DNA of 61,282 nucleotides, filler included, from Dimargaris cristalligena (Eukaryota): NCBI GenBank assembly GCA_003614675.1. It is 5 parts of 5 records of this genome, joined end to end, with 100 filler letters (N's around TTAATTAATTAA, not from the genome) between each part and the next. Parts side by side here need not be neighbours in the genome. Positions count along the whole stretch, not along the records: positions 1 to 12,215 come from ML003046.1; 4 more parts are not named here. The stretch is one strand, 5' to 3'. The notes below the pieces were generated by a model that was given only the letters and a program-made list of their open reading frames with translations, searched no databases and was not told the origin of the DNA. How positions within the stretch are numbered: position 1 is the stretch's first letter; every line of letters starts with the position of its first letter. The position numbers were made by a program, and so were the translations under genes. Positions 1 to 36,894 of the stretch are shown here, piece by piece.

Positions 1-73
1 TAAACATCCCACCAATTTTCCCATACACATATCGGTTAAACCCTTATACAACCAAGCTGAACTTTACCCATAT
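1..73. mobile_element. MITE-like element, partial copy cut by the window edge
   Basis: 1..73 is a near-perfect reverse complement of 138..210 and ends in CCC-ATAT like the other copies. Confidence 0.6.
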
Positions 74-137
74 GCATCTTCCGTGCTAGTTGCATAAGTG
101 CGCTGTTATTATTATACCATTGGGATATGTTTGAACG

Positions 138-281
138 ATATGGGTGAAGTTCAGCTTGGCTGTATAAGGTTTTAACTGATATGTGTAGGGGAAAATCGGT
201 GGGATGTTTATTTTCAACCAGTAGTATATGCCTCAACAAATGGATTTTTCATTATACAGTCTTGTTAAACTACTCCCATAT
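138..281. mobile_element. MITE-like element (~136 bp), ATAT-GGG...CCC-ATAT ends
   Basis: Imperfect terminal inverted repeats (GGGTGAAGTTCAGCTTGGCTGTATAA / TTATACAGTCTTGTTAAACTACTCCC) flanked by ATAT; homologous to 7008..7133 and 35655..35795. Confidence 0.65.
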
Positions 282-1104
282 TAATTAAAACCCTGGATTA
301 AAGGTTCAATATGTGGCCGGTATATTGGCATGGAGTCGTTTAATACCTTATCATTTCCATGACCCCTCCTCCCCCCAGTTATCTTTAATTTTTAATTTCG
401 ACTCATTGTGTTAATAATATTTTTATTAGTTATATATATACGTCTATACTGTATATAAAGCATTGGCTATGGTGTATGATTACGATCTGATGTCTATGGA
501 TTAGTTAAGGAATAAACTGCTAGCTATCCGATATTTCTTGATAGACACCTCGCTTATTGGGCTAATATATAGGAGGGAGAACTCCACCCCGTATCGTGCC
601 ACGTCATTGGCTTTCTGAGAAGGGTTCCCTTTATAACCGGTATACATTATAGAATCCATTTATATTTCAACTTAGGCTCAGGGGATGGCTACTCCACTAT
701 TTATCGACTCATACATATACACACTGAGTGTTACACCACCATCTTTTACTCTTTTTATAATAGGGATGTAGGAAAATGTCAGGGGTAGTAGCTAAAGTGA
801 CTAAACATACAATTGCAAGTCAATCAGATGCTCTGATTCTAGGTAATTAGGCGGTGTTTGGTGGCCACAGCATCTCAATTATCTATATATTACAGCTATT
901 AATTTTGAAGCAATATAAGCTTAGCAACAGTGGGCCAAAAATGGTACATAAAGAATACTGAGACTGCGCTCATTACAAATTATAATTAAATGGTAGACTT
1001 ATTCTGAATCTATATATAGCTATTATCTGTTACAGCTAAACTGGATTGGTATAACTGCTACACTCGCATGATGTAAACTAATGTGGATTTAATAAAAATG
1101 ACCG

Positions 1105-2254
1105 ATTATTAAACTACACTTTATTTGACATGTCTTGCTGATTTTGGGCTTGATGTAATCCTCTGCCTTAGGCTACCAAATAAGACCCTATCAGCCAAGC
1201 CTACTCACATTCCAGAACTGCTACTATTGCAGCAGGTAGCCACTCTAATCCAATGCTAGAGTCCATGGATTTGGATTCCTATATAGTATAGCCATTGGTA
1301 TTGGCTCTACTATGACTTATTCAAGAGGAATTGACTGGGGATATCAATATATATAGGAGTTTAGGAATTGGGTTCTAAATCAAGACAAATATGCAGGAGT
1401 CCTAGTGGCTGAAAATTGTAAATTAAGTAAGTATAGGCTAAGAAATGCCAGACTGTACCCCTGGTGGAGTATTTATAAGTGGGGGTGCCACCAGAGATTA
1501 TTACAATAGTTGCCATGATGGCACTAAAAGAACTATTAGATCAACAATGTGGGCTTAGCAGATGCCCTCCAGTATCACCAGTACTCTTCCTGGTTGGCCA
1601 TCTGATGTGGTCTCCATATATTCATACTCTCCCAGGTGTATTCCTTATTATTTATCAGCTTATATCTACAGTATATATCCCAATATACCAGTGGAAGCTA
1701 ATCACCAGTAATTATTTTTACATTTAGTCCCATATATCAACCCCCCTCTTTATACTGACCTATATCAGTATGTTTGAATAAAAACAGCTCCAAGTGACAT
1801 GTTCTTAGGAAACCTGACTGTGTGGACTCTAGTACACTGCTGTAATAGATAGTCATGATGGTAGTCTCATTATTCATTTTTAACCTACTTAATAATTGGC
1901 CAAAAGGTACTATATATTAAAATATATTTATATTAGGCTTTCATAGTTGAATATATATTCCTTTTATAATTAGAAATAGTCTGTTTTTACAAGCTGGTTA
2001 ATAATCAGAATAAATATAATATTCAGATATGATTGATCATCAAATTAAAGCTCTGGTTTCACAAAAATAAAACCATGACTGGCATTTTTCCATTATAAGA
2101 GCTTAATAACTAACTAATACCACAATATAAAAGATTGCCAGTGGAATAAAATAGATGCCCCATCATCAAGGAGATTTATAGTTACACTACTTGACTTAAT
2201 ATCCTAAAAAACTGCAAAGTAACAATGGGTATAAGTATATTATCACTTTTTATT
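1105..2254. repeat. AT-rich, CpG-free degenerate repeat or transposon-derived DNA
   Basis: No CG dinucleotide found by eye, TA-rich, no credible ORF; abuts the LTR cluster. Confidence 0.4.
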
Positions 2255-2671
2255 TATTACCTAGGTTAACTACCCTTAGCCCATCAAGAGTTCTGAGGAT
2301 AGGCTTCTAACAATAGGTAGGGCTTAGATTCAGCTAAATAGGCTACTGGTATTAGGTATAGGGTACTATACTAACTAATAAAGGCTATAGTATGGATATA
2401 TAAGGGACATAAAGTGGGCATACTTACTAGTCAAAATGGGGGAATAAGTATATATATAGAGTTTATAGGGAATAAACTAGGGGAAAAAATAAGCAAAGGA
2501 ACCTAACTAGTCCTAATGGGGCCTAGTTATATATATGCAGGAATAATTCCAGAGGGAGGTCCTAAGGAAAGGATACTACTAAAACTAAAGTATAAGTATA
2601 TAGGCTAACCAGGAAGTCATGAGTATACAGAAGACTCTGATGGTAACTAGAAGAGTCTTCAGATTAGTACT
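2255..2671 (-). mobile_element. Truncated LTR copy
   Basis: Begins TATTACCTAGGTTAAC (a mutated TGTCGCCCGGGTTAAC); colinear with 10145..10560; broken by the full copy at 2672. Confidence 0.75.
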
Positions 2672-3246
2672 TGTTGGCCCTCCTAATCTGACTTAATCTG
2701 GACATAACAATTGTCCATCCCTATTAGGCCTTATAGTGCCATATTAACCTTCCCATGGTCACCCCCAGTACTATGGGATCACCCTATATTATATAACCCT
2801 TCCCTTCTTGACTCCAGAACCCATTATTCACCCCTGGGCTGATCTAATGACTCTTCCAGTTCCCAGCCAAGTCTTCTATGCCCCTATACCATCCAGTTAA
2901 CTAGTTTATCCATCAGTAGTCTTAGTAGTATCTTCCTTTAGGGACCTCCCTTTGGAGTAGTCCCCCACATATATATAACCAGCCCCCACTGGGACCAGTT
3001 AGATGGTAGCTTATTCATGTCCCCCAGTTTACCTCAATAAACTCTATATATACTCACCCCCCATACTAACTAGTAAGTGTGTCTGCTGCACATCCCTTAC
3101 ATATACTGGTGCTTATCCTTTATTGGTTAGTGCTGCACCCCCATCCTAATGCTAGTAGCCTACTTGGCTGAGTCTAAGCCCCACCTACTATTAGAAGACT
3201 ATCCTTGGGACTCTTGATGGACTAAGAGTGGTTAACCTGGGCAACA
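2672..3246 (+). mobile_element. Solo LTR of an LTR retrotransposon (575 bp); strand labels for this family are relative
   Basis: TGTTGGCCC...GGGCAACA inverted termini; internal TATATATAA and AATAAA; close reverse complement of 11148..11722. Confidence 0.85.
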
Positions 3247-3635
3247 ATGAGTATATATAGAGTTTATTGGGATGGACTAGGGGGGGTAAGAATAAGCTAA
3301 TGTTAACCAGTCCCAGCAGGGGCCAGTTATATATACGCAGGGGACTACTCTAAAGGGAGGTCCCCAAAGTGAGATACTATGGAGGAATACTGATGGATAG
3401 AGACTAGCTGGATAGTGAAAGGGTATGGAAGACTCTGCTGGGAATTGGAAGAGTTGTCAGATCAGCCCGAGAGTGATTAATGGTACTCCAGCATCCAGAA
3501 AGAGAAGGGTTATATGATATAAGGGGATCCTATAGTACTGGGGGTGACTGTGGGAGGGAAAATATGGCACTATAAGGCCTAATAGGGAGGGATGATTATT
3601 AAGTCTGGATTTAGGTTAGATTAGGAGGGCCGATA
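3247..3635 (-). mobile_element. Truncated LTR copy
   Basis: Same family in the opposite orientation; ends GATTAGGAGGGCCGATA, the LTR terminus. Confidence 0.75.
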
Positions 3636-4204
3636 CTAACTATAAAAGGGGGTATATAATAAGGATTAATTAACTAAAGAATAACTATAGGAATTGGCTC
3701 AGCTTTATATAGCCTAATAGACTAATGATAAAGGCATTGAAATAGCATGGAAGATTCTGGATGACACTATTAGATAGTGATATAATGAATAGCTAATAAT
3801 ATATGGATATATAGTAGAGGGGATATATGGAATAGGTGAATAGAGTGGTGGGAATGGTTGAAGGAAGGTGATCCTTCATTAAGGCCAACTTCCCGTACCT
3901 CATTAATGGAACTAAGCAATGATGGCACCTAATCAATCATAGTTAGCCAGCTTTAATCCTCTGGATTATTAAGCACGATAATAACCAATAGAAATAATTT
4001 AGGAGCACCAAATGCTTAAAATAGGATTCCACAAATTGATAGGTTCAACTGTTTAACAAACTACAACATTTGGCTGTCACTATAGACAAGCCAAAATAAT
4101 AGTTCATAATGTGGATCACTGCTGAAATATACTGCAATCAAGTATTGGTAGCCAAATGACTTAACCCAGAGTTATGGCCGCCACAACGAACTATTTTGGT
4201 ATCA

Positions 4205-5572
4205 TTACTTCGGCAAAAGCCGAAAAATAATATGGGAATGTTCATTTCGGATTCGGGGTAGATCATCACGGAAGATCCAGAGGACATATACTTCCTGAAG
4301 GTTGGGTAGGCGCGATAATATAGCCGCGAGTTCATGTAAATTGGTCAGTCGAAACGACAAGGCAATTTGTGGAAGTGTACTAGAAAAAAAGTCTTGATCG
4401 ACTAGCTGGCGCATAAAATCCACGCCACTATCTTGTATAGTCAGAGACTTGAGCTTAACGCACTTGTATAAAGTTTGTGCAGTGGTAACTGCAAGATCAG
4501 CAAGATCAATTAGGATAAGGGTGTGGAGTCTTGGATAACTCTGGGCAATAAGTAGACCAAGATCGGGAACCGTGATATTACCAGCAATGCCTAATATAGT
4601 AAGTCGTGCCCGGGGTAGTTTAAAAAACTGGTGTAAGGCTTCTTGCTTATCGGGGGATGACGATGGGTTTGATCCAAAATTGATTGTTATCTTAGTCAAA
4701 CAAGGAAACCTATCTTCGGTTATATTGCTAAGAGCCTGTAGTCGGTTTAATATTTGGCCAATGTTCAAATTAAGAGATACCAGCTTCTGGGGATATGGCA
4801 AGTGATAGTTACACACAAGGCGGAGATTCTGACGAGAAATCATCAACATGTCGGTATATCGAGGGACACGGCTCTGCCCTATACTGTAAAGACGATCATC
4901 AGGCGGGTCTCTGTGGGGTCTTGGGTGCTGATATAGAGGACGTTCCCTTAGATGCTGGATTGTGACGCCATCGCCTATGGGTTGGATATTTAGGGCGAGG
5001 TCCTCGAGTTGATACCATAGAGAATACAATGCCTCTAGAGAGTACGGGTCCCGATCAAGCTGGATGGATCGGCGAATTGTATTTAAGCCACGATAGTTAC
5101 ACACGACTAATTTACGTGGTGGCTGAGCCAAACTTGTCAAGCAATTCAAAAAAATCGACCAAGAGTTCAAATCAGGCAGGTTGAATTCGATAGTATGTAA
5201 GTGAGATAGTTGCTTAAATAGCAAACGGAGTTGATTTGGACTGGGTACTCCAGCTTGTCCCACGTTATTAAGTTTTAAACTATATACGCGCGGGCGGTGG
5301 CGACTGATAAACTGAGTAAGATTGTCACTGAGGTAGCCACGTCCCTGAAATGATAATTTTATCAGGTAGGCTGAGGTGACGAATGGACGGAGCGTACGGC
5401 AGACGGCCGCTAAGTGTAATTGGTCAGCTTGGTGGAGATAGCGAACAAACCGGTAACCAAGCAAATGGTTGGCCGGGTTCAATATACACACCAGTAGTCC
5501 AAGGCCGGGGGACTGGATGGTTTGCGGTTGGCCATCAGGTCCGAAGGATTGATTAGAGAAACTAGAAAACAT
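4205..5572 (-). CDS. Lineage-specific F-box-like/LRR (RNI-like) protein, paralogue A, 455 aa
   Basis: Intact ORF; F-box-like YLHQADQLHLAAVCRTLRPF; leucine-rich repeats (FPCLTKITI, YPRLHTLIL, LPNLQEVYV); colinear with the 7333..8712 protein. Confidence 0.75.
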   Translation of the reverse strand: MFSSFSNQSFGPDGQPQTIQSPGLGLLVCILNPANHLLGYRFVRYLHQADQLHLAAVCRTLRPFVTSAYLIKLSFQGRGYLSDNLTQFISRHRPRVYSLKLNNVGQAGVPSPNQLRLLFKQLSHLHTIEFNLPDLNSWSIFLNCLTSLAQPPRKLVVCNYRGLNTIRRSIQLDRDPYSLEALYSLWYQLEDLALNIQPIGDGVTIQHLRERPLYQHPRPHRDPPDDRLYSIGQSRVPRYTDMLMISRQNLRLVCNYHLPYPQKLVSLNLNIGQILNRLQALSNITEDRFPCLTKITINFGSNPSSSPDKQEALHQFFKLPRARLTILGIAGNITVPDLGLLIAQSYPRLHTLILIDLADLAVTTAQTLYKCVKLKSLTIQDSGVDFMRQLVDQDFFSSTLPQIALSFRLTNLHELAAILSRLPNLQEVYVLWIFRDDLPRIRNEHSHIIFRLLPK

Positions 5573-7007
5573 GGTGACTGCATTAATGGCCCAAGACCAA
5601 TTGGCGAATTGCCCGAGTTCCGGTACTATAAAACTGAGGGGGTCAGCTCCCTTAGAGCTAGAAATAAGAAACGGAGTAGTAGACTTCTGAAAATATTACG
5701 AGAGTATGGATCTATGGTAAGTGTAAGTAGGTATTGCTAAGTTGATGCAGCATACCGGGAGATACGGACTTGAAAGAATAGAGGAAATTTCTTATAATTT
5801 ATTGGAGATGCGATATAGACGGTTTATATCCCGAAAATTGTAGCTTAGTTGCTCAATATGAGGTCTACTGGTCACTGCGCTGTCGTTGCTACTGTCATAA
5901 AGACCATGGTGAATGATGCCGTGGCTTCCGATTGAAAGCCAATAACTCTGCCAAAGAGAAAAAAATAGAACAGGTGGGTCTAAGGATCTTCCAGTAGTAG
6001 ATAAGACTAAGGCCAGGTTGTAGCTAATTGGCAAATGAATACACTGCTTGGAAAAAGGGCGGCCTCACTGCTAGCCATTGATGAATTGGCCATTCAAGCC
6101 GTCGAACAATGAACCCGAAGCGGTTTTCCCTCCTCCTGGAAGAAGTGGAAGGCCACCATAGGATTGTTCTAAAAGCCTTGATTAACGGCGGAAACGTCAC
6201 CTGAATTTCTTTATGTGGCCATTAAACGCTTTCCACGATGTCCGCCTCCGCCAGAGTGCCATTAAACTGACAAGGTAGATAATTATCAAGCCCGTAAATT
6301 CATAATTCTAACTGCTACAGACTTAAGATGGAAGACCAATAATGGTGTCATAAATTTCCACCCTCAGGCATCATTAATAAGTAGGTGCAATATCTTAATA
6401 CATGATGTATGGGGAAAGACCCATATCAATGAGGCGGTAGTACTTGAATAGTTGAATTTCGCAATAGGACCACACCATTAACCTAGACGTTGTACATTTT
6501 AGGCAATTTGCCTCAAAAATACTACCGCCCTTGCTACGGATTTTTCTTGTGGAGTGAGTATGTTTATTTTGCTGGGAGACTCGGCCTTCGACGTGACAGG
6601 TTTGGAGATCTGCGAAACAACTTTGATGTTCTTACCAGGCAGCTTTGATGTCAATATAGAAGGCCCCAATTTGACAGTTTTGGGGATGCTTAAGGGTCCA
6701 TATTATGTGGTTTTGGGGTGCCGGGAATCATAATAGACACTGTGTATATTTGCAGGAAACAAGGAAATTTCAACTTCTGATATGCTTGGAATTACCAATG
6801 AAAATATTTAAGTGTTTATTGGCATGCATAATAGTATCCAAATAATATGTGAACTTCAATGTGTAGACAATTTATTTGTTCTCCTTCACAGGATTCTAAC
6901 GCCTTCTATATGCGAATTCGGATAATTTGGAAATGCTAGTTGCGTTGTAAGAAGAGATACAAAGAAAGTAAAAAATTAAAGCTACAATGAATATTTCTAT
7001 TAAAACC

Positions 7008-7133
7008 ATATGGGAATAGTTCAACCAGGCTGTATAACAAACAATGCTACTAGGTGGAAATACATATCCCACTGATTTTTCCATATACATATCAGTTAAA
7101 ACCTTATACAGCCGAGCCAAGCTTCACCCATAT
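7008..7133. mobile_element. MITE-like element copy
   Basis: ATAT-GGG...CCC-ATAT ends; shares ACATATCAGTTAAAACCTTATACAGCC with the reverse complement of 138..281. Confidence 0.65.
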
Positions 7134-7332
7134 TAAGGATGGGGAAATTGAAATGTTATTAATCGCAGTAATAATATAAATGAAAATTATCACAGTAGAT
7201 ATTGGTAGGATAAAAAACAAGCAAACGATAGGTTTGCTGGCTAAGCCATGATTGAATTTTATACCAGCCACTAGCAATCAAGCATGGCATGCCGGATAGT
7301 CCAACAAATCACAGCCACCACAACCTAATATT

Positions 7333-8712
7333 TTAAGATGCAAATGCTCGAAAAAATCGAAAAATTATATGAGGATACTCATTTTGGATTTGGAGTAGAT
7401 CACCGCAGATAGGCAGACGGACATATACTTCCTGAAGGTTGGGTAGACGCGGTAATATGGCCGAAAGTTCGCGTAGATTGGTATGTCGATTCAGCAAGAC
7501 AATTTGTGGAAGTGTACTAGAATAAAAGTCTTGATCGAATAGCTGGCGCATAAAATCCACGTTACCATCATATATAGTCATTGACTTGAGCTTAGCGCAA
7601 TTGGATAAAATGTATGCAGTGGTAGCTGCAAGATTAACAAGACACGCTAGGGTAAGGACGCGGAGTTTTGGAAAACCCTGAGCAATAAGAGGGCCAAGAT
7701 TGGGAACCCTAATATTTCCAAGAATGTATAATTTAGTGAGTCCTACCCAAGGCATTTTAAAAAATTGGTATAAAGCATCTTGTTCATCGGGGGATAGCGG
7801 CGGAGCTGGTCTAAAAGTGATGATTAGTGTAGTCAAATAAGGATACCTTGCTTCGGTTAGTTTTCCAAGGGCCAGAAACTGGTCCAACCCCTGGCCGATG
7901 AACAAACTAAGGGAGACTGGCTGTTGGGGATACGGCTGAGATGGACTGCGCAGGAGGCGACAACCCCAATGCCTAACCAATGGCATAATATCGGTATGCT
8001 GAGAGTTGCGGCTTGGTTCCGTATGGCGAGGGAAATCCCCAGGTTGGTCTCTGCGGGGTTGCAGGCGCCGAAAATGGGGGTGGTCATGTAAAATGTGAAT
8101 GCCAATGGCATTATCCATGATCTGAGTGCCTAGGATGGGTCCTTGAAGTTGATTAAATAAATCGTGTAACACCTCTGAATAGTATTGCTCTGGATCAAGC
8201 CGGACGGATCGACGAACCAACATCAAACCATGTTTACTGATCACAGCTAATATACGAGGTGAATTAGCAAGACTTGGTAAGTAATTGAAAACAAACGACC
8301 AAGAGTTCAAACAAGGTAGTCCGAATTCTATTGTGTGTACGTGGGATACTTGACGAATAAGTAGGCAGATTTGAATATAGCGGGATATTTTAGGCATTCT
8401 CATGTTGATGATATATAAATGTCGTACACGCGGGCGATAGCGACCGATAAACTGTATAAGGCTGTCGTGGATGTTCCTATACAAATCAAAACATATATTT
8501 ATCTGGTAGGCTGAGGTGATAAATGGACGGAGCATACAGCAGACAGCCGCCAGGCGTAATTGATCCAGTTGGGGGAGGTAGCAAATAAATTGTTTACCAA
8601 GTAAGTGGTGGGTCGGGTTCAATATAAGCAACAGCAGTTTGAGGCCAGGGGAATAAATGGGGTGTGGTTGACACTGAGGGCCAGTGGAATGAGTAAGAAT
8701 ATGAGAAGACAT
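7333..8712 (-). CDS. Lineage-specific F-box-like/LRR protein, paralogue B, ~459 aa
   Basis: ORF 7333..8976; start reassigned to the ATG at 8712 (MSSHIL) because homology with paralogue A begins there; shares DFMRQL.DQDF.SSTLPQI and LPNLQEVYV. Confidence 0.75.
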   Translation of the reverse strand: MSSHILTHSTGPQCQPHPIYSPGLKLLLLILNPTHHLLGKQFICYLPQLDQLRLAAVCCMLRPFITSAYQINICFDLYRNIHDSLIQFIGRYRPRVRHLYIINMRMPKISRYIQICLLIRQVSHVHTIEFGLPCLNSWSFVFNYLPSLANSPRILAVISKHGLMLVRRSVRLDPEQYYSEVLHDLFNQLQGPILGTQIMDNAIGIHILHDHPHFRRLQPRRDQPGDFPRHTEPSRNSQHTDIMPLVRHWGCRLLRSPSQPYPQQPVSLSLFIGQGLDQFLALGKLTEARYPYLTTLIITFRPAPPLSPDEQDALYQFFKMPWVGLTKLYILGNIRVPNLGPLIAQGFPKLRVLTLACLVNLAATTAYILSNCAKLKSMTIYDGNVDFMRQLFDQDFYSSTLPQIVLLNRHTNLRELSAILPRLPNLQEVYVRLPICGDLLQIQNEYPHIIFRFFRAFAS

Positions 8713-10144
8713 GGCAACTACGTTGGTGGTTGACAGGAAACAAGGATAGTACGAATACTGCGACAAGAGAAATAGGGACAACCAAACCAGGCTGAGTTCA
8801 ATGTGCTTGAATAGGAAATGGGCAGCTTTTAAATCAACCATTCCCAAGTTTATCATCATATATATCATTGTGATGGCCGGACTTTTGACGCTTCCCACAT
8901 TGCCTTCCAGAATATACAGACTACTTAAAGAATTACAAGTGTATAATGGCAACGCCGTAGAAATACGGACTCCCACTGCTGTTCAATGCAAGCCCCAAGT
9001 AAACATTGGAGTATTTACATTCCCAATGTCATACTGCGGATCAACAGAAACCGGAATTTGGTATATTCCTTACCCCCCTGGATTGCCTCTTCACTGGCAT
9101 GGGGGGCTGACCCACGAATACAGGTTATTGGCACTATATCGCCAGCTTTTAGCCCAGCCCCCCATGTTTACAGCGGGTCATGACAGCGTAAACCCACCAG
9201 AGACTGTATTGTCAGAAAGGCTGTTCGGTGATGGCGTTGGTTGACCGTTTTCAGGAATGTCCGTCTCGGAATACTTTTTTTTTCGACCCACTTATCTGGA
9301 CATGCCCATGTCCCAATGGCCATTGGGGATGTGGGAGTCCGCTCGGGAGTTGAAATGAAACGTAACATAATCTTAGTAATTACGCCATGCAACTTGTCGC
9401 CATTTATAGCTCGGCATTTATCGAACTATTCGTTTGCAGGGGATTATTAAAGCCCGAATCATCATGATGAGCACGCCATCCTTGGAGATAATGCATGGTG
9501 CTATTCAAAAAGGTATTACCCGACCCCTTACCCCACCAAGTCATGCGGGGATGTAGTAGTAATGGATGTAAAATACTATGGTTTCAAGCCGATGTATACT
9601 GAGTTCTCATGGCAGACCATCCATGCTAGAGCCATATTAAAATACTTAAAAATATATTCCGATGGGTCTATTATTCTCTTCTGTTTTTAACTAATTATGC
9701 TGGTGTATTGGTCATTCTATGTCCTCTCATTTTAACTGCTTAAAATTCCTCCTACTGGCTATATTATTTAATATGACTAGCCACATAGATGCTTACCGCC
9801 CTCTAGCTACTCTCTTCCCTTTACTTGATTTTGTTGACGCACCTATAGCAGTTATAACTGGTTAACTGGGAAACAATGTGGAGAATGGTGGTTGAAGTGT
9901 CAATCATCTGTGGGCTTTGTCTGGGTTTGTGGTTAAAAATTAAATAAAGAACTGGGAAATAGATATGCTGAGAAATAAAATACTAAACCAAGGTCAAGTA
10001 TAAGATTGGTGAAGAGAACAGAGTAAACCATCAATAATCTCTAGAAGATACCAAGATACTATCAAGTATATATACCCCAAAAACACATGAAATCAAAATA
10101 AATCAAATACACAGTATGTAGTGTAAACTGTTAGACTTAATCTC

Positions 10145-10729
10145 TGTTGCCTGAGTTAACTACTCTTAGTTCATCAAGAGTCTCAGGGACAGGCTTCTAA
10201 TGGTAGATGGGGCTTAGACTTAGCCAACTGGGTCCTAGCATTAGGTGGGGGGCACAGTACTAACTAATAAAGGCTAAGCACAGGTATTTATAAGGGATGT
10301 TCAGGGAGCACACTTACTAGTCAATATAAGGGGGGTGAGCATATATAGAGTTTATTGTGATAAACTAAAGGGGTAAGAAAATAAGCTGAGGTGTTGAACC
10401 AGTCCCCATAGGACCTGGTTATATATATGTGGAGGATGACTCTAGAGGGAGGTCCCTAAAGGAGGATACTACTAAGACTAAGGTATAATAAATAAGCCAA
10501 CCAGATAGCCATGAGGATCTGGAAGACTCAGGTGGTAACCAGAAGAGTCTTTGGATTGGCACTATAGTGATTAGTTTCAACTAAGGAGTCTGGAAGGGGA
10601 ATAGTTATGTGATATAGGGTGATCCCATAGTACTAAGGGTGACTATGGGAAGGTTAATATGCTACTATAAGGCCTAATAGGGATGGATAATCACTACATC
10701 TAGATTAAGTTGGATTAGAAGGGCCAACA
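10145..10729 (-). mobile_element. Solo LTR (585 bp) with perfect 5-bp target-site duplication ATCTC
   Basis: TGTTGCC...GGCCAACA termini; ATCTC at 10140..10144 and 10730..10734. Confidence 0.9.
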
Positions 10730-11147
10730 ATCTCCTTGTGGATCCTTCCTCCTGTTTATCTATATTAGTAAATTATATTATTTTTTTCTATCTTAGTATA
10801 GCATACTGTAGAAGAATCTGATGTTATCCCTAACATAAATAACTTATTTCTTAATTAGAAAGTGGGTAACTATTGTATTAATTACTCTACTGTTTGGCCC
10901 TGGATTTGCCTAGTATATCTGACACTGGCATATTGACAGTTTTCACCAGTACCACTAAACTACTATACAAAACATAATAATAGAGCTATGGGTATTCTGA
11001 AATGTGAAATTTCTTACTAAGGACCATGGTGGTAAAAATGAGAAAGGTTGTATATATCAACAAATGGGCAGGATACCCCATTGGATTCAATATCTTAGTC
11101 ACTAAAACTACACTTATGGAATTACAAATAGTTTAATTGTATGTGGG

Positions 11148-11722
11148 TGTCACCTGGGTTAACCACTCTTATTTCATCAAGAGTCCTGAGGATAGGCTTC
11201 TAACAGTATGCAGGGCTTAGACTCAGCCAAGTGGGCTGCTAGCATTAGGATAGGGAGCAGTATTAACCAATAAAGGATAAGTACTGGTATATGTAAGGGA
11301 CATGCAGTGGGTACACTTACTAGTTGGTACAAGGGGGGTAAGTGTATATAGAGTTTATTGAGGTAAACTGGGGGATATGAATAAGCTACCATCTAACTGG
11401 TCCCAGTGGGGGCTGGTTATATATATGTGGGGGACTACTCCAAAGGGAGGTCCCCAAAGGAAGATACTACTAAGACTACTGATAGATAACTAGCTAACTG
11501 GATGGTGTAGGGGTATGGAATACTTGGCTGGGAACTGGAAGAGTCATTAGATCAGCCCAGGGGTGAATGATGAGTTCTGGAGTCAAGAAGGGAAGGGTTA
11601 TATAATATAGGAGGATCCCATAGTACTAAGGGTGACTATGGGATGATAAATATGGTACTATAAGGCCTAATAGGGATGATCCAGTATTATATCCAGATTA
11701 AGCCAGATTAGAAGGGCTAACA
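11148..11722 (-). mobile_element. Solo LTR (575 bp)
   Basis: TGTCACC...GGCTAACA termini; near-identical inverted copy of 2672..3246. Confidence 0.85.
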
Positions 11723-12215
11723 GTATTGATGTTTAAATATATATCCTACTTTCATCATGCTGCCATGAGTACTTCTGGCTGTTTTCAAGACTTAAAGGCA
11801 ACTATGTCTGGGGAGATTATCTAACTACTCAATTTTGTAGAAAATGTCCTAGAAGAGATACTTATGAAATTGACACATAAAGACCTGTCATGGTTCAATA
11901 AGATGGTGATAATTTAATCAAATAGTATCATTTCTTTTCAAGTTATGCCATCCCATTGACTTGGAGATCCTTGCTATAGTTTAGTATACCTGATACTTCT
12001 CCCCCTAAAATGTTTTCAGCTATATTAGTTATTATAGGAAAAATATCTGAATATTTGCTAATAAATCCCAGTAATACCATAACTCTCAATTAATAAGTAA
12101 AATAATGACCAAAAACTAGGTTTTGCCTTGAATTACTTACATCTGGAAACCCAGGTGTAAAGAACTGAAATCAAATCCTTGAAAACTGAACTTTATTTGA
12201 AAAGATAGATAATAA

Positions 12216-12315
12216 NNNNNNNNNNNNNNNNNNNNNNNNNNNNNNNNNNNNNNNNNNNNTTAATTAATTAANNNNNNNNNNNNNNNNNNNNNNNNNNNNN
12301 NNNNNNNNNNNNNNN
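12216..12315. other. Assembly gap (Ns plus TTAATTAATTAA linker)
   Basis: Directly visible. Confidence 0.99.
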
Positions 12316-12372
12316 GTTAGAAGCCTACCCCCGAGACTCTTGACGGACTAAGAGTGGTTAACTCGGGTGACA
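12316..12372 (+). mobile_element. LTR end fragment with CpGs retained
   Basis: GTTAGAAGCCTACCCCCGAGACTCTTGACGGACTAAGAGTGGTTAACTCGGGTGACA aligns to 3190..3246. Confidence 0.8.
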
Positions 12373-13626
12373 ATGGACCAGGCCAAAGTGTGGACACAGA
12401 GGACCAGGCGCGTGCCCATTCATAGAAAAAAAGGTAGAGTTACGATGCCTCCAATCTTGGGAAGCAAGACTACCTAGGACAGCCATACTGCTTAGCAGTG
12501 GAACCTTGACTGGCCGAACACAGGTGAGCTATTCAAAAGGGTCTATTCAATTCTCGTTCCTTCTGTCTGTGCTTATATTGTTAGCCAGCGTGTGAGTGTT
12601 TAGGGCCAAGGAGATGTCGCATTTAGAATAATAGTTATTTTGATGGCAGATTGTTGAGCCCGATGAGTTTTCATTTGCGACTATATTTTAGTAAATCATT
12701 GGAAATAACCACCAAATTACGCATAAAAAAGAATGCGTTTTGACATAAAACCTCGCAAGAGTTTGCAGGTATATTCGAATCCCGGCTGACGAAACCATAC
12801 AGCGATGAACTTATTGAGAATTCGACATTGCTAGGGGGTCAGCTTTTATCCTCACCACCATACCTTTCGTCCACTGATGTTAGGCTGTAGCAATATTACC
12901 CACCCCGCTTCTGGAAATTGAAATATGTTAACTTTCGATGGAACTGGCGCCGTTTTTGATGGAGGAAGATCTGTCGTGGATTCCTTCTAAAGGAATTTCC
13001 TAAATAGCACTTGGCTGTCGGTAGGGAAGTCGGCGATACTGGGAACCAGGCCGTTGGTGACCGTAAGCCACCCTTTGACATGTCAAGCATACGGCCAAGT
13101 TGATTGCTTACTGCGAAGATAATGTGGATCCGCCACCATCATTTATTCCTTCGAGTTTGGTTGGGAACGAATTAATGGCCGACGAAGAAGACTAAGTAGC
13201 CAAGCTACAGGTTAGGTTGGGTTTCGAAATTTCAGAAGGAGTGATATACTCTTCGTTACTTCCCAAATCGAAGTCCGGAATTGTATGAACTAGGTTATGT
13301 GAAGTGCGGTGTAGCCTCGGGGATCACTGTACTTCAGCAATTGGCGTTGACGAGAATAAAAGGATGGCATCCGGCCCTCCAACCAGACCCATCATTAACA
13401 ATACATCGTTCCCTATTTCCTACACCCATTTCTTCTCTCAGCTACGCGCCACTCGGATACTAAGTATTCACCCCCGACTTCAACCCTTGCAGTATCCACC
13501 ACCATTTGACCAATCCGCTGCCCAATTACCCACAAATCCGAAACTTCTGGCACCAAACCTCTACAATTATTATCACTCATTTCGACGCCAAGAATATTCC
13601 ACTAAAATTACAAAATAAACCCTATC

Positions 13627-14853
13627 ATGCCCCGCCGACTCACCAGAAGCAACCTCATTGACCATCAACCAGACAAGCTGCATCGCACATTCGTAGATGG
13701 GTTGAGCAAATATGCCCGCAACAAAGACATCCTATCGTTATTTTCGGTCGGTCGTGCCCAAGAACAGGTCCTCCGTCCCTTTTGCTTTCGACGTGTACGC
13801 ATTGCAACGAGCTCCTCCGATGCCCATGAAATGCACAGTGTCTTAAGGAAATACCGGGAAAATATCCACCAAGTTACCCTGGTATTGGATAGCGAATTTA
13901 CCGCCGACCCCCGTTTTTGTGATACCCTTGGCCGTGTCATCAACATATTGGCAAAACTAAAAAGCCTGGTCATTGAAGTGTACCACCCCGCCCTCTTGCA
14001 AATGCTGGTCCGCCTTTTGGGCCCAGCTATTCAACAAGTTGAGAAATTTAAACTGGTGAACCCCATGCGCACGAATTTCTACATGAACCCATGGCCCGTT
14101 TTGATTCCAGAGAGACTACCTTATGGAATTGAAAATGATAATAGCACACTGGTTCTGGGTTGACACATCCACTGGGATGCTCATAGATGGCAGGCCGTAC
14201 TCAACTGCCACCAGAGTTTACGACGCCTAGTCCTACAGGACACAGCCATTTGCCATCTCTTGGATGTACTGTGAGCAACTTGGCAGTGCAATCATGTCAG
14301 AACAGTGGTGCTTCGGTGCCTAATTACACATGGCCCAATTGCCCTGGCAGCACCTCAGGCGGTGCCATTTCATATGAACCAGCAAATGGCCGGGTCAATT
14401 ACCAGTCTGGTTTTTCACGAGGTGGCTTTTGGTAGCAACCTCCTGAAGAGGGTAATTGACCTAGCCGGGTTCAATGTTTGGAAATTGCGGCTAGTTAATT
14501 GCACCTGTGATGAGCAGGAGATTAATTATGCACTGCGTTTCTGTCCACAGTTGACACACTTTGATTTGTGTCATCGTGATGCAATATTCACCAGGGATCT
14601 CGTCCCTAGTGAATTATCGACCACTATTTTAACACATGTGCGAGTCGCAGTAAACTACATTGTGACTGCATGGGTTTTGCCAGCCCTACACAGGCAGCAT
14701 TATTTACTGCGACTCAGCATATATAAGCCTAGCTGCCCCAGTTTTCGGGCTTTACAGCAGGCTCTTCCTCGGTTGAAGATACACTTCCTTTCAACCGAGG
14801 AGTATAATAATCTCGTAAATCGGAAATTTGTAGAGCGGGCAACAGATGGGTGA
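13627..14853 (+). pseudogene. F-box-like/LRR gene interrupted by two in-frame TGA codons (14161, 14272)
   Basis: ORFs 13627..14163 and 14305..14853 are in the same frame; the intervening sequence reads G*HIHWDAHRWQAVLNCHQSLRRLVLQDTAICHLLDVL*ATWQCNHVRTVVL; LRR-like motifs (FCPQLTHFDL, ALPRLKI). Confidence 0.7.
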
Positions 14854-16669
14854 TTTCTACTACCCGATCTGTGGTTATTTAGTATTGTAAATAAAATTCA
14901 AGGTTTTATATTTTGTTGTCATGTAGTTCAAGGGAGTTAGCGGCCACTATTTATATTCAGATGTGATGGGTCAGAGGGTACTGGTTAGGAAAATATTTGG
15001 GTAAAGAGCGGCCGCGGGTTATATTTCAATTGTGCTTCTTATGCTGTGTAGTGTTTTAGCAATCGGGCAGGTGGTTGAAAGTGGCTTCAAGTGGCGGTGA
15101 TAGTGTGATTGATTGTTTTTTGGTGCATTTGACTTCTTATAACATTTGTTGTAGAATGACCGACACTCCAGTCGCACATACTCAAGGGGATGCTAGATTG
15201 TAAAAGGTCCAGGGGTCCGGGGTCGTTGGTTGGTGGTACTTATTATAATTAAATGTTCAATGTGCATTTACCCTTCATTAAATGCCTGCGTTGGTGTTAA
15301 CGGTACAATTTGTCTATATCAGAGCTATTGTCTCACAGCCCCCCTATTATTATTTAGTAACATGTGACCTACCTAACGCCTAGTAAACTCGGTACTTTTC
15401 TTCCGGATTTGTTAGTTGTATATATCAGTGTTGTCGTCCACTAGCTATTCGATTCTAATTCCAGTTCTTGTAGGCCTGAGCCGGTAGTTTGGGTAGATCG
15501 ACATCATTCTAAAGGAGGCCAATTTCTAGAATCCGCTGACCAGTTGGTATCCATTTATTACAATTGGGTGATTCTGGCCCACTTTCGATTTTGGGCAACA
15601 TCGCCTTAGCCACAGTCATGTCTTAGAGTTGTGGCACGGCCCTTTGTCTATTTTTACTTAAATATCCTTAATGGCAGACTTAAACATTCCTGTAATTTTA
15701 TTATAGATTTGTTTTTGGATGATAAGGCATCGCCCAGGCGTCAATAGCGAAAAGCTCATCGTCGACTCTGTCCACTCTGTCAGGAATAGGGCGTATCTTG
15801 TGAAGCGCCGTAGGCGACTTTCTTTGGGCGTAAAACTAGAATTTGGCATATTGCGATACTTTCGGGGCATATTGAACCAATTAGGCATGTGGAAAATAAT
15901 GGAATAACTTCAATGGTTTGGTTGGTAGTACCAAAGTGGGTTTTAATTGTGAAATGATTTTTTATCATCGAACGTTTCCACCGTTATTTGCCTCAGTTGA
16001 TACGCTCCCGTACCATTACTGAGTGTTTTTAACATGTTCAGTTGCCAATTGAAACCATTAGATATATTAACGTTTTTTACATCTCCGATAGTTTTATGTT
16101 AGTCTATTTAACCGAAATCTTGAGATTTGCTGTACTCAACTGCATATACCAATATTAATCTGCCGTGGGTCACTCTTTAAGTGCCATCGTTTTCGCAGAG
16201 GCCAAAATATAACTCGAAAATGAACGGCCCCGTGTTGGCTTTCGAAAATGGTCAAGTGATCCGATATAATATTAAAGGATTCGTTTTAGTTCACTAATGG
16301 AAACATATTGGTTCTGTTAACTATCGAACATGTGGCCATACGAGGTGACCCGGCCATTGTTACTGTTGTGGATGGAAGGGTACAATACTGTAAAAATATT
16401 GTGTTTTGGAACTAACTTTAGTCATCGAAGCCCCCCAATGGTTTTTTCACCAAATGCCGTTCCGAGCTGGGACCCCATATTTATTACGGGCCACTCCCTC
16501 TTTTTCATTGGGGTAAAATCTCGGTTTATTTTACTCCATTGCGTTTCCAATTATTTCTACTCCAGTCTGTATATTTTATTATAGACTCCCTTCACATACA
16601 ACTTATTTTCCGACATCGCCCTCATTATTTAGTCCAGTGTTTAGTGTACTCAATACTGCTGCATTTACC

Positions 16670-16954
16670 ATGTTCAAAAAGATTTTTACAGCTATATTAG
16701 TCGGTCTGGTTGCTGGTCAGTTGTTTACGATAGTCAAAGCCGATGAAACTTCAATATTGGAGGATATTGGACCGAGAAGTGGAATTCAGCGTGCCATGAA
16801 ATTACAAGACATGAAAGTAAATGAATCCAGCTAGGGTTTGCTTGGGGATACAATGGACCATCGGTATACGCCTAAGTATAGTGGCAAAAGCCCCCCTGAT
16901 CCCTTGCTACTGAGCAAACAATACTCAAGTGTGTCCTTTTGGGCAGTATACTAA
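16670..16954 (+). pseudogene. Small signal-peptide ORF or degraded secreted-protein gene
   Basis: MFKKIFTAILVGLVAGQLFTIVKA looks like a signal peptide; TAG at 16832 is followed by 39 more open codons. Confidence 0.35.
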
Positions 16955-17502
16955 CCATGGCTAAGCAGGGCTAGGAAGATATCTGTTGGTTTTGGAAGGG
17001 ATTTAAAAATGATACAATAAACCATAGTATTAGCTCGCCCATCAATCCGGGGCTTTGCATGTGCCTGGAGTGTCTTTGGAAGAAACAATTGGATAAGGAT
17101 TAAAAGGTGAGGTATTATTTGGTGAGGCCACTGGGCATTGTGGAAATGGAATAGATACATGTTGTGTTGATTAGGTATGGAATGAGCCCTATTGGTAGGG
17201 TAGGGCACTTGAACCAATAATGCTGACCAAGCACTGGTTAATAGCTCTGCATAGGCTAACCGAGGAGTGTGCCAGTCAGGTCAACGTATTATTTAGTTTT
17301 GGCATGGCTGAAAACTGAATAATACAAGCAGACGTGGCCAAGGACCCGCTAATCACCACACCCTTTCCTATACTCTACTCACTGGCTATTTTATTCAGTG
17401 TCTTCGACTTTAAGACGGCCCAATGTGTTGTTGCGGTAACCAGTTGTTACTTTTCCGAATCTCTGGCACCCGTACCCGTATCTCCCAAGCTGGACCATAC
17501 CA

Positions 17503-17934
17503 ATGTTACAACCCCATTCTCTAGCTGGGCTGACCAGGTCAGTAGTATATAGAACCAAACTAAACCCCACAAGCGTCTTTCTGGTCCGGTACAAGACAAC
17601 ACAAGAAGGCGACTCCCCTGCCCCCCCTCTACACCGCCTCGTGGCCCAATTACCGGCCAAGCCCGAAGTTCCGTCCAGTGACATGTGCTGTATGAGCGGC
17701 TGTGCCCGCTGTGTCTGGGACATTTACAACGACGAACTCCACGAATTCGAACAGAGCTTGGAGACCGTGCAAAAGGCGTTCCGGGAAGCGGGGCAGCCGC
17801 TGCCCCAACGGGTCCAGGCGCTGCTCCAGGATGTCAAAGGGGATCAGGCTGGGAATCCCCTGGCGAAACCCGTTTCCCCAGAAATGGCGGCCATGCATGC
17901 GTTTATGGAACTAGAAAAGAAACTCGAGTCATGA
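17503..17934 (+). CDS. Oxidoreductase-like domain protein (OXLD1/UPF0651 family), possibly mitochondrial
   Basis: Family motif PEVPSSDMCCMSGCARCVWDIY; basic N-terminus; C-terminal AFMELEKKL. Confidence 0.85.
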   Translation: MLQPHSLAGLTRSVVYRTKLNPTSVFLVRYKTTQEGDSPAPPLHRLVAQLPAKPEVPSSDMCCMSGCARCVWDIYNDELHEFEQSLETVQKAFREAGQPLPQRVQALLQDVKGDQAGNPLAKPVSPEMAAMHAFMELEKKLES

Positions 17935-19384
17935 CCCAAGGCAGCTGGTCAAGGTGGTCCGTGGGGATGGAGTGTGGTATATATCTACGGGTGTGTGGGT
18001 ACAAGCCCCTCCTCCTCTTCTACTTCAACCGTAACCGCTGCCACTGGAGCCAGGCCTAGGATGCACCGAAGTGGGGACACCTGCTCCATTGCCCTCCCTC
18101 CTCGTATTTGGAAAGTGAATAACCAACCTGTCACTACTGGCCTCTAGGGGGGCAGCACATTGGACAAGGTTTTTCAATTCAGCAGGAGAAGTGTGGTGGC
18201 AGTGGAGGTCAACCATTGTTTAATTAGCCCAGGGGAGTAGCGCAACTGCAACCAAGGGGTTCGGGCCAGTGTGCCAGGAACTGTGGAGGTTCATCAGACT
18301 GTCCCACCTGCCCTTGTGTAGGGCAAGTCATTGTTGAACTCCCCCGGCTCTTTTTCACTCACTCCTCCCGTCGTCTCGCGATTCTCAATGAGAGGGAGAC
18401 GGGAGGAGGACTGGCTTGGCAGCCACCGAGGAGACGATATATCAGCATTGCATTGTCAATGGGTCGATAAAACATCCCCAATCCGCCCCACCTGTCCCCC
18501 ATTAGCGGGTGTACTTTAATCTCGACCCTCCCCAATAGCTCCAGCTGTGTCCGACAGTCTGTTTCATATTGCCCAATAATAATGAGAATATAATCATAAT
18601 AATAATAAAAGAAACCGACAAGTATCCTCCCAGGGCCCCGAAACCAAGTAGTGGAGAGAGAGAGGTTCCCATGGAACTCATAGTTGGTTTGTTTAGAATA
18701 CCTTCCAGCCACACGCCAACTAAGGCTGTGAGGAGAATCCAGATACCAGGGATCGTCGCGTGTATCTGACAAGGTGAAAGTGTCCTGCTGAATCGCCTTG
18801 AGGGTGGGGTGGGGTTGCATGCGCGGTCCAATGGACTCTAGGGAGGTGGGTGCAGGTTAGTGATACCGGCTGACTGACTACCTAACCGTCCGCCATGCAA
18901 GCTTGGGCAAAAGAACCCTACCTCCCGCGATATAAATAGGGCAAATTTGGTTAATATAAATAGATATAAGGGGTAAGAGGAGGAGGGGGACAACTATGTA
19001 AAAGAAGTGTACCTGCCCGGGAGGAGGGCAATCATTCGCCTAAAGGAGGAGGTGTCGATTTGATTCGTTCCAGGTCGAAATATTCGAGAGGCATGGAATG
19101 GCGGCTTTAAATAGCGGAGGGTGTGGGCCCCCGTTGTTCGGACCCCTTTCCCCTGTCAATTGGGTATCAACCGGCGATTATTTTTACCCCGTCTGTTTGG
19201 CTAGCTAGAATACCTTCTTATTTGTCGTTCTAGCTTTCTCCGCTTCACCCTATGTACTATAACTCCGCCACCGCTCTCTGCTTGACTGGACACATTCACC
19301 GCTGGTCCTTCCTTTAGCCCGCTTTTGCTACTCTATTCACCCGCTCTTCTTCTAGACTCCTAATATTCTCCACTAATTAATTAA

Positions 19385-19411
19385 ACACACACACACACAC
19401 ACACACACACA
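19385..19411. repeat. (AC)n microsatellite just upstream of the 19423 ATG
   Basis: Directly visible. Confidence 0.9.
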
Positions 19412-19422
19412 TTTACACTCGC

Positions 19423-22400
19423 ATGGCCCACGATTTCAGCGACTTCAACTTTGTCGATTCCATTTCGCCTCCTCAACCCCAAGCCGCCTCCCCGCCACCA
19501 ATACAACTCCCCCATCCACCGGCTCCTCAGCGCCGCGTTCAGCCCTACCTACCCCCGCCCCAGTACCTCCGCCCACCCGAGTCGGGGGGCTATTCGCCAC
19601 GGTCGGAGGAGATCGGCACCACCACCACCGCCATAGCCCCCGTTCCCAAACGCCGGTCTATCCTCCCGGAGCAAGTGCTACCCCACCAGGCCCTGCATGC
19701 CCTCAAACAGACCCCCAATAGTCGTCTCAACCAGCAGCACCCCTTAACTAACATCGCCAATGACGAACTGCCCGACTGGCTAGAGCCTCCACCCAAAGGC
19801 AAGCAGCCGCGTCCGCTCCGTCCGGCCCAGGTCCAATCGTCCACCCGTTGGGACGGACACCACCCCCTCGCCTCTGCCGTCAGCGTCGCCTCCCAGGCCG
19901 ACGACGGAGGGAGCAACATTGGGAACCCCCGGGGAGGTGGCGGTGGTCGCCCCCCACCCGGGCCAGGTCGGACGGCAACCGCCACTTCGTTCACCGGTAG
20001 TATGGCCAGCATACGTCAGATCGCCGCCTCCCGTTCCCGGCTCCGCTTACCTAAGCCCCCTGCCCTCAAAGTCATTCACCCCGCCGTGCACCACCACTCC
20101 GCTGCCGTGGAAGCCGTTCAGGCCCCTGTGTTGCGCGTGTTTATTGGGCCTTTAACCCCCGACTGGATGACCTTCTCCCTTAAACGAAGGTGGCGGGCCT
20201 ACGCCCCCCGGGACTCCACGGGGACCGGTCCTTCCCCGCCACCAGCGCTGTCAGGGCCCGCTGGCGGTGACGCCCCGCCGCAGTCCCACACCCGCACCAT
20301 CGACCACGTCGGGTCCATGTCCATTCCGCTCATTCGCGAGCCTACCATGGCCCTCCCAGCCGACCCCGACCCCCTTAGTAGTGCTGGTGAAGGCGACGAA
20401 GTGTTCGTCGGCTCCCCCCGCTCGCTCCTTGACGATACCCCTCGACTGCAGTCCCAGCGGTCGAACGTTACCTTCCGTATGCGACAGTCCCATGCCCCTC
20501 GGCACTCCCGCTCGACTATCAGTCAGTACCACACTCCCATGACCATGGTGACGAGTACCACGACTACCAGTCGGGCCGAGTCGTTCCATACCGCCGCCGA
20601 TAATATGTCCGTGGCAACCACCGAGAGTCTCGTCTACTCCCCGGGCCGGCCCCTGCCGGATCCGTACCCGTCGGACCCGTACGCCCCCCACTCGCGCCTT
20701 CACGACCCTCCACGTTCCCCCGCCGACCGCAAAAGTCTACGCAGTCAGAATTCGGGCCACTTGGCCCGTTCCCCACCAGGGCATGGTGCCCCCAATCCCT
20801 GGTTCGATCACTGTCAGGACGAGGCGGCTACTTCACTGCAGTCGCCCAGCCACCCCCTTGACCCGGATGGGGGTGAGTTGGTTCCTAACCCCGACCACCA
20901 GTTGGCCGACATCCAGGCCCGCGTCGAATCCTCTTTGCTCCAAAACACCCACGCAACTATCGTCCTGTCCCGCGTGGCCCCCGTGGCCATGCGGCGCGAT
21001 TACTGCCGACCCGAAATTGCCATGATGCACTATAACGAGTACTCGGCCCCCAAGTGTCGCATCATATCGGACAAATGGAAACACACCACCTGTATGATCC
21101 AACCCGGCGAGATTAATTTCTACCGTCGGTCCACCACCAAACCGGCCCTTACCATTCATCTTAGCAGCCGCACTCGGCTGTCCCTCTTTTCTAGCCTGGA
21201 CAACTCGTTGGCCATCACCTACTTTGAGCAGGATAGCGAACAGAAATCACGACATCAGTACCGGCGCTCCCTCCGACATTATTACCGTTCCCATCAGGCC
21301 AAGTCCATTTCGCACCGCCGGGTCGGCACCCAGCGCTCCCTTGACCTAAATGTCGGCCGGTACAACCAGGAACCCCACGCCGCGAATGCCAGTGGAGACA
21401 CGAGCCAACGCACGCCCACTCTACCCTCATCAGTGGGGGCGTTCACCCCCTTCAATTTGAGTGGCATCATCCACAGTGCTAACCGGGTCCGGCCCAAGCG
21501 CAGCCGTTCCCACCACCACCACCGCCATGCGAGCAAGAAGAATATCACTACGGCCGCGGCCATGTCCACGTCCGCCGCCGCCGCATCCGCTGCCCAAAGC
21601 AACAAACCCGTGCAGGCCGTGATCATTCGCTTCCCCACCGCCGCCGAGGCAAAAATCTGGTACCGCATCCTCCACTGCCACATTCTGCACGTGACTCCGA
21701 TTCCACGGACCATTGATCTCACCTGCCCCACTTTAAGCGCCTCCCCCTTCCGGTCCGTCAAGGTGGAGATTCCCCTCCAGGCCCTGCCCGTGGCAGCTTC
21801 GCCGACCCAGGGGGGCAGTCTATCGCCCGAGCACCCCAACCTCCCCTTCGCCGCTCAGTTTGAAATCACTGGTCCTCGGAGTGTCTGGGATGTGCGCACC
21901 ATGGCCGCCTTTGAGCTCATCGTGGAGTCCGAATGGGCCGGTGAGCTGGCCCGCTGGATCGAGAACCGGTCGTTGGCCGTCTGCATGAAACGGTTCGATC
22001 GGATCGACTGGTGCGTGTCTAATCTCACCGACGGCTGGGATGCCCTGGACCATAAATTGGTCATGGAGGGATACCGTATCGCCCAGATGATGAGTGAAGA
22101 TGATAGCGATGCCATGAGTGAGGAGGACAATGCCGCGGCCGCTCGGGAAAGGGCCTTGCGCGACCGTAACACCCGGTTGAATATGATTTCATCCTACAAG
22201 GGGGCGGTGCCCCCCACTCCTGGCCCAGGCCACTATGCTGCGACACCGGACCGCTTATTATTATTATCGGAAGACAGCAAAGCATCACCCTCATACACTT
22301 TCGATGCCTCAGGAGGGCGTGACGATGGGCTCGGGGATGACTCACCACGCTCACCCACTTTTCGCCGTCCCCCTGCTCATACTCCGTATATTGCCAAACC

Positions 22401-36794: not shown

Positions 36795-36894
36795 NNNNNN
36801 NNNNNNNNNNNNNNNNNNNNNNNNNNNNNNNNNNNNNNTTAATTAATTAANNNNNNNNNNNNNNNNNNNNNNNNNNNNNNNNNNNNNNNNNNNN
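36795..36894. other. Assembly gap
   Basis: Directly visible. Confidence 0.99.

Follow-up and report, generated by a model that had tools for sequence, protein, structure and literature searches.

CpG-free zones around an abundant LTR family in a Dimargaris-like fungus as a probable footprint of cytosine methylation

Why should fungal DNA that is otherwise well supplied with CpG contain runs of more than 2 kb in which this dinucleotide never occurs? The question is raised by a 61,282-base window of a draft genome assembly (the whole stretch of DNA that was analyzed), in which the CpG total is 2,510 and five long runs contain none. Zone 1, at positions 1104-3336 (2,233 bp), is the core of the finding; zone 2 occupies 9839-12215 (2,377 bp) and reaches the end of contig 1, zone 3 occupies 36053-36794 (742 bp) and reaches the end of contig 3, zone 4 lies at 37158-37929 (772 bp), and zone 5 at 52950-53905 (956 bp). 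The original prediction had described CG absence at ~1105-3330, ~9845-12215, and ~53000-53897, in agreement with zones 1, 2, and 5. It had also placed a CG-free run over the whole of 35760-36794, which carries CpG at 35903 and 36052 and is free of it only from 36053 onward, and zone 4 was absent from its list. Judging from sequence, we think it probable, with some reserve, that CG-centered 5-methylcytosine (5mC) covering islands of transposons, followed by deamination, emptied these zones.

The absence of CpG is far outside expectation. Pooled, the zones span 7,080 bp and contain 0 CpG, against 261 predicted by base composition and ~203 predicted from how often CpG occurs in the rest of the window's DNA of low guanine-plus-cytosine (GC) content, for which ln P(0) is about -203. 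Outside the zones the observed-to-expected ratio (O/E) of CpG is 0.82 (2,502 observed vs 3,044 expected). The inverted dinucleotide GpC has an O/E of 0.80 in the zones, compared with 0.00 for CpG, and among nine other dinucleotides tested the longest run free of any one of them is 306 bp (for CC). The borders of the zones are sharp, and the pooled CpG O/E beyond them is 0.46 at 0-250 bp from the edge, 0.65 at 250-500 bp, and ~0.85 farther out.

Self-BLAST and MAFFT alignment delineate a repeat unit of ~585 bp with TGT..ACA ends, present as nine old copies or fragments (A to I) on four of the window's five contigs. Three lie in or across the end of zone 1: copy A (2254-2667, + strand), a partial copy of the first ~415 bp and the most TA-rich of all; copy B (2671-3246, - strand), full length; and copy C (3248-3631, + strand), the 3' ~385 bp of the unit, which retains 2 CpG. 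Copy D (10145-10730, + strand), which has both TGT..ACA ends, and the full-length copy E (11148-11722, + strand) follow on the same contig. Copy F (36397-36794, - strand) is truncated by a contig end, copy G lies at 37220-37721 (- strand), and two partial copies, H (53408-53609, + strand) and I (53609-53896, + strand), lie in zone 5. The sequence ATCTC stands on either side of copy D as a 5-bp target-site duplication, and we therefore identify this copy as a solo long terminal repeat (LTR); the other copies have flanks that are unlike one another. The termini, the duplication beside copy D, and the many dispersed copies are those expected of solo LTRs. The old copies are 65-87% alike, with transition/transversion ratios (Ts/Tv) of 1.38-3.88 over 32 copy pairs. 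Copies B and E, 86.6% identical overall, are 97% complementary over 157 bp (2906-3062 vs 11333-11489) and ~89% over the adjoining 235-bp arm, and gene conversion between these two old copies may have produced the 157-bp stretch.

Two further pieces, both at contig starts, retain CpG. Fragment J (12316-12372, - strand) comprises the first 57 bp of an LTR, lies where contig 2 begins, and retains 3 CpG. Fragment K (36895-37079, + strand), at the start of contig 4, is the 185-bp 3' end of a related LTR, 50.5-58.5% identical to six of the old copies, and contains 11 CpG (O/E 0.92). The motifs from which a direction of change had originally been read are mostly placed as described: CCCCGAG at 12329, GACGGA at 12342, and CTCGGG at 12362 on one side, CTTGGG at 3204, GATGGA at 3216, CCTGGG at 3236, and GGCAACA at 3240 on the other, with TATTACC at 2255, TATTGGCC at 36400, and GCAATA at 37718 as the more altered termini. 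The exception is GGCGACA, which occurs only in the edge fragment of contig 4 (at 37073), the fragment at 12316 reading GGTGACA.

Alignment of the copies bears out the proposed direction, from CpG to TpG or CpA. The three CpG of fragment J read TG, CA, or TA in all seven old copies that cover them, fragment K holds its 11 CpG where old copies read TG, CA, or TA, and column pairs in which TG and CA are mixed number 24 of 577, compared with 5-15 for seven control classes. These 24 pairs and the sites at which CG stands in fragment J together make up 27 inferred ancestral CpG sites, which in the nine old copies read TG 61 times, CA 67 times, TA 52 times, and CG twice (n = 182), both retained CG belonging to copy C; in copy A they read TG 3, CA 7, and TA 10. 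The strand-symmetrized 5' neighbors of the lost CpG at the 27 sites are T 11, C 30, A 8, and G 5, a distribution that rules out restriction to TCG. These observations leave little room for the weakest explanation, to which we give almost no credence, namely that there was no mutational process and the repeats lacked CG from the outset, as they might after acquisition from a CpG-poor donor, or that the zones are an assembly or sequencing artifact: the window is indeed a draft assembly of short contigs, but LTRs of the same and a related family carry CpG where the old copies do not, the mixed TG and CA pairs exceed every control class, and, as described below, part of zone 1 recurs in contigs from two studies.

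An alignment of all LTR copies with tabulation of substitution contexts had been suggested as a check, and it shows an excess of C>T at both CpG and CpA over CpC and CpT. Relative to an ancestor reconstructed from the nine old copies of this one window by majority rule with a CpG correction, C>T changes per C number 235/376 at CpG, 54/246 at CpA, 59/738 at CpC, and 44/501 at CpT, compared with 10/244 to 27/388 for T>C. Changes private to one copy, where the others agree, give 9/51 at CpA, 12/326 at CpC, and 13/359 at CpT, and a bootstrap ratio for CpA over CpC and CpT together (25/685) of 5.0 (95% confidence interval 1.8-11.4). The CpA rate is thus 2.9-fold above that of CpC and CpT in the rate comparison and 3-5-fold above it across estimates, which supports the further step from CpA/TpG to TpA that the original prediction had seen in some LTR termini. 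Judged from survivors, the CpG rate is more than 23-fold above that of CpC and CpT, and because ~48 CpG would be expected to have regenerated from TpG and CpA and none is seen, the bound rises to ~91-fold or more; both bounds are rough, since the age of a copy includes divergence that preceded its insertion. The lack of regenerated CpG argues that the process lasted long after insertion and was not a single burst.

Strand symmetry bears on a third explanation, in which an APOBEC-like cytidine deaminase edited retrotransposon complementary DNA (cDNA) before integration, so that the copies arrived already mutated. Copy A departs from the family mainly by G>A, which accounts for 9 of 21 of its best-supported specific differences. 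However, per site, C>T equals G>A in every copy (12/55 and 25/105 in copy A) and the TG and CA outcomes are balanced within each copy; moreover, flanking single-copy DNA that was never reverse-transcribed has been purged as well. The expected strand asymmetry being missing, we rejected cDNA editing and regard it as very improbable. Nor do changes on one strand cluster: runs of C>T or G>A number 240 vs 215 expected, no copy falls below its shuffles, and for every copy a fraction of at least 0.48 of the shuffles has no more runs than observed, although the old age of the copies could blur strand-coordinated runs. Because Ts/Tv is only 1.38-3.88 at 65-87% identity and strand clustering is lacking, the changes look like old, independent events.

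The dinucleotide content of the LTR copies differs from that of the remaining CG-free DNA. In the copies, the O/E is 0.82 for TpG, 0.84 for CpA, and 1.54 for TpA, and the onward change of CpA to TpA would explain the low TpG and CpA with raised TpA. The conventional indices for repeat-induced point mutation (RIP) are passed when TpA/ApT exceeds 0.89 and (CpA+TpG)/(ApC+GpT) is below 1.03, and the LTR copies, at 1.44 and 0.95, pass both. In all CG-free non-LTR DNA pooled, TpG has an O/E of 1.27 and CpA of 1.05, TpA/ApT is 1.02 with no TpA excess, and the second index, at 1.23, fails its threshold. The signature of this non-LTR DNA is pure CpG decay.

Part of that DNA is single-copy. Logan contigs from three sequencing runs of two studies were placed on positions 1000-3700 at 80% likeness, and in the bins from 1000 to 2182 each run contributed exactly one contig, with depths of 366, 895, and 116. 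The stretch 1104-2253, 1.15 kb beside the LTR cluster and about half of the interval originally reported, is therefore single-copy at 80% likeness or more, wholly without CpG, and apparently non-coding, with no Pfam match in any of its six reading-frame translations. The label "repeats", which had been given to the whole of zone 1, does not fit this largest part of it, where no repeat is recognizable. Over 1000-2310 the contigs of the three runs reproduce the window's sequence with 0, 0, and 2 differing letters. The two differences, 1304 G>T and 1842 G>C, are too few for a mutation spectrum and belong to run X5 of the second study, which is probably from a slightly different isolate and whose contig has two gaps over this interval.

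Over 1000-3700 as a whole, the three runs recruited 3,507, 2,379, and 4,085 pieces, and summed depth in the LTR bins reached 284,008, compared with 366 for run X1's single contig. A depth totaled over contigs does not give a copy number, and we call the LTR family only very abundant. A conserved 27-nt LTR motif searched in metagenome contigs gave 0 matches and no further copies. No Pfam family, and with it no gag-pol internal region, was found in 48 stop-masked six-frame translations (6 + 42) of the CG-free non-LTR DNA, which consequently is not assignable to a transposon; full LTR elements may lie elsewhere in the genome.

A second repeat and a pair of duplicated genes serve as controls. The copy of the second repeat that abuts the LTR beside zone 1 (z1, 3642-3934, + strand) contains 1 CpG vs 7.4 expected, and its homologue beyond zone 5 (z5, 54026-54303, - strand) contains 10 vs 12.7 expected; in alignment, z1 retains 1 of 11 CpG of z5. 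When z5 is taken as the reference for polarizing z1, a pair that lacks an outgroup, z1 shows 26 G>A and 11 C>T against 6 A>G and 3 T>C, and C>T by context is 15/36 at CpA, 7/22 at CpG, 8/40 at CpT, and 5/36 at CpC, which again supports the step to TpA. Between zones 1 and 2 lie two linked tandem paralogues, an open frame of 496 codons (4205-5695, - strand) with CpG O/E 0.94 and one of 549 codons (7333-8982, - strand) with CpG O/E 0.82. Their DNA is 66.2% identical over 1,490 bp, which makes them more diverged than most LTR pairs, and they have 27 of 68 CpG in common. The only assignment for this family is a weak leucine-rich repeat match in the second paralogue (PF24758, E = 7.7e-4), which does not reach the curated cut-off. 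CpG-holding repeats (J, K, and z5) coexist with purged ones. The process is not, as had been proposed, strictly repeat-targeted, since 1.15 kb of single-copy DNA is purged while linked duplicated genes and the CpG-bearing z5 are spared.

We return to CG-centered methylation of transposon islands. According to this explanation, the zones would be old islands, clusters in which LTRs of one very abundant family stand solo or as fragments, together with the DNA between and beside them, that are now, or long were, covered by cytosine methylation at symmetric CG and more weakly at CA. The methylation would be laid down by an enzyme of DNMT1/DNMT5 or Dim-2 type acting on a chromatin domain. 5mC would then turn into T site by site on either strand, each CpG becoming TpG or CpA; newly arisen CpG would be removed again, and TpG and CpA would move on to TpA a few times faster than background. 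The edges of the domain would be sharp with shoulders of ~0.5 kb, genes, duplicated ones included, would lie outside and keep their CpG, and young LTR copies would still have theirs because the process takes time.

Such a domain accounts for the symmetry between strands, the missing strand runs, and the ordinary Ts/Tv, and it also explains the inclusion of single-copy DNA, the graded shoulders, the spared duplicated genes, and the CpG in young copies. We favor a domain over homology as the determinant because the single-copy stretch is CG-free and CpG O/E recovers with distance from the edge. As in the 5mC decay of methylated transposons generally, loss here is CpG-specific with nearly equal TpG and CpA outcomes, it is limited to transposon islands, CpG is kept outside the domain, with recovery within ~500 bp and in both paralogues, and young copies still bear CpG.

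Several points weigh against this explanation. Methylated vertebrate DNA keeps a CpG O/E near 0.2, and the purge seen here, 0 of 261 expected, is more complete than textbook 5mC decay, the implied rate excess being an order of magnitude higher than in vertebrates. The additional CpA>TpA excess, seen in the rate comparison, in the singletons, and in z1/z5, is the context of RIP or of a Dim-2-dependent mutator and not of classical CG maintenance, and the LTR copies lie on the RIP side of both conventional indices. The data are thin, consisting of nine old copies from one window, an ancestor set by majority rule, and a z1/z5 pair that is not polarized by an outgroup. Finally, passages in the literature describe early-diverging fungi as usually rich in N6-methyladenine and poor in 5mC (PMC13297926; PMC11258239), with 5mC nearly undetectable in the former account (PMC13297926) and scarce in Mucoromycota and Zoopagomycota otherwise in the latter (PMC11258239).

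The strongest rival is a RIP-like mutator, which would be triggered by homology, premeiotically or mitotically, possibly in a DNMT-dependent manner like the Dim-2 pathways of ascomycetes. It would favor CpG over CpA, hit the multi-copy LTRs repeatedly, and leak into their flanks. The great abundance of the LTR family fits such a mutator, as do the CpA>TpA excess shared by two independent repeat families, the LTRs' RIP indices, and the total purge, since an enzymatic process could produce a more than 23- to 91-fold excess in rate more easily than spontaneous decay could. The non-repeat DNA of the zones shows CpG loss only, and the CpA component may thus be specific to repeats. Like RIP in Neurospora and other Pezizomycotina, the process changes C to T in repeats with a CpA>TpA component and TpA enrichment. 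Unlike RIP, its main target is CpG, Ts/Tv is ~2, strand clustering is missing, and duplicated genes are spared: the linked 1.4-kb duplicates are intact and CpG-rich. Single-copy DNA next to the cluster is purged over its full 1.15 kb, far beyond the usual leakage of RIP, and the CpG-bearing J, K, and z5 coexist with hundreds of relatives. The RIP gene RID is not known outside Pezizomycotina, which leaves this fungus beyond its known range. RIP-like signatures are reported to be enriched only in ascomycetes (PMC12543289). Of the original proposal of RIP-like or 5mC-driven genome defense, then, the CpA component stands, most of the RIP hallmarks tested do not appear, and we consider a homology-triggered mutator unlikely.

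Known fungal systems supply partial analogues for both explanations. CG methylation by DNMT1 or DNMT5 occurs in Basidiomycota. Rhizophagus irregularis is reported to have CG-methylated transposons and a DNMT1-related enzyme (PMC8647823), and in Phycomyces 5mC is reported almost exclusively in repeats, "similar to Linderina pennispora (Zoopagomycota)" (PMC11258239). Dimargaris belongs to the same subphylum as Linderina. For the RIP-like alternative, the transposons of Pucciniomycotina are described as hypermutated at TpCpG (Horns et al, 2012; PMC3318451), which resembles the present case in being CpG-context C>T in transposons of a non-ascomycete fungus but differs from it in the TCG restriction. 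In Zymoseptoria tritici, a Dim2-dependent mitotic CA>TA mutator is reported (Moller et al, 2021; PMC8016269) whose C>T changes are limited to 5mC-marked transposon regions, favor CpA, and need no meiosis; in the present DNA, in contrast, no CG is left in the zones and CA is the lesser target. Literature searches combining Dimargaris or Zoopagomycota with methylation, RIP, or CpG, with Bewick 2019 and Mondo 2017 outside their scope, returned no report of such a footprint, and they never named Dimargaritales in connection with 5mC-driven CpG decay.

The organism was placed by a gene on contig 5, the contig that also carries LTR copies H and I. The AP-1 mu protein encoded at 58547-59854 (+ strand) is 94% identical to a Dimargaris verticillata protein in a homology search, the next best matches, at 84% or less, being unnamed records, Glomeromycotina, and chytrids. 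This protein assigns the organism to Dimargaritales (Kickxellomycotina, Zoopagomycota), and the organism is thus the early-diverging fungus on which the interest of the finding had originally been made to depend. An affinity to Basidiomycota, suggested when the ESM Atlas put AP-1 mu in a cluster of mostly Basidiomycota, was superseded by the homology search. The LTR family, counting the nine old copies and fragment J, is represented on all five contigs, and these therefore belong to one genome, a point that matters because Dimargaritales cultures are described, in a passage of PMC9866270, as carrying host DNA.

The contigs themselves (1-12215, 12316-24516, 24617-36794, 36895-49050, and 49151-61282) are arranged in descending size and joined by artificial linkers of the form N44-TTAATTAATTAA-N44 at 12216-12315, 24517-24616, 36795-36894, and 49051-49150, in which TTAATTAATTAA places a stop in all six frames. 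What had been taken for gaps within the sequence are thus ends of draft-assembly contigs, and LTR copies on different contigs are not genomic neighbors. The first 55 bases of contig 5 (49151-49205) are the exact reverse complement of 53898-53952, 4.7 kb downstream and adjacent to where LTR copy I ends; an overlap of k-mer length or an assembly-graph hairpin, and not biology, seems to be the source.

Other features of the window lie apart from the zones or touch them only in passing. GC content differs strikingly from gene to gene: an open frame of 1,712 codons (19381-24516, + strand), cut off by a contig end and matching a SPO71-type PH domain (PF23207, E = 1.6e-7), has 57-67% GC, and other parts of the genome have 35-50%. 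A small repeat of 70-140 bp, resembling a miniature inverted-repeat transposable element and partly in inverted pairs, occurs on two contigs (1-73, 138-281, 7044-7133, and 35655-35795) and is CpG-poor, with 1-3 CpG per copy vs 1.3-4.4 expected. Rfam and tRNA scans of the window gave no match, and no DNMT gene lies within its 61,282 bases.

Methylation-linked CpG decay of transposon islands is a known process, here encountered in a lineage in which it is undescribed. The transposon islands of this Dimargaris-like mycoparasite display an intense conversion of CpG to TpG and CpA with an added CpA component, a signature that is unusually complete and visible from the DNA alone. It bears on whether the link between methylation and mutation in fungi predates Dikarya. 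That a methylation-coupled or RIP-like cytosine mutator is active in Zoopagomycota, erasing CpG wholly and driving CpA to TpA in repeats, is a doubtful but consequential suggestion: if true, mutagenic genome defense would exist outside Dikarya, possibly already in the common ancestor of terrestrial fungi, with a DNMT1- or Dim-2-like enzyme in place of RID. In genomes of this kind, age estimates for transposon copies will be too high as long as CpG and CpA sites are included.

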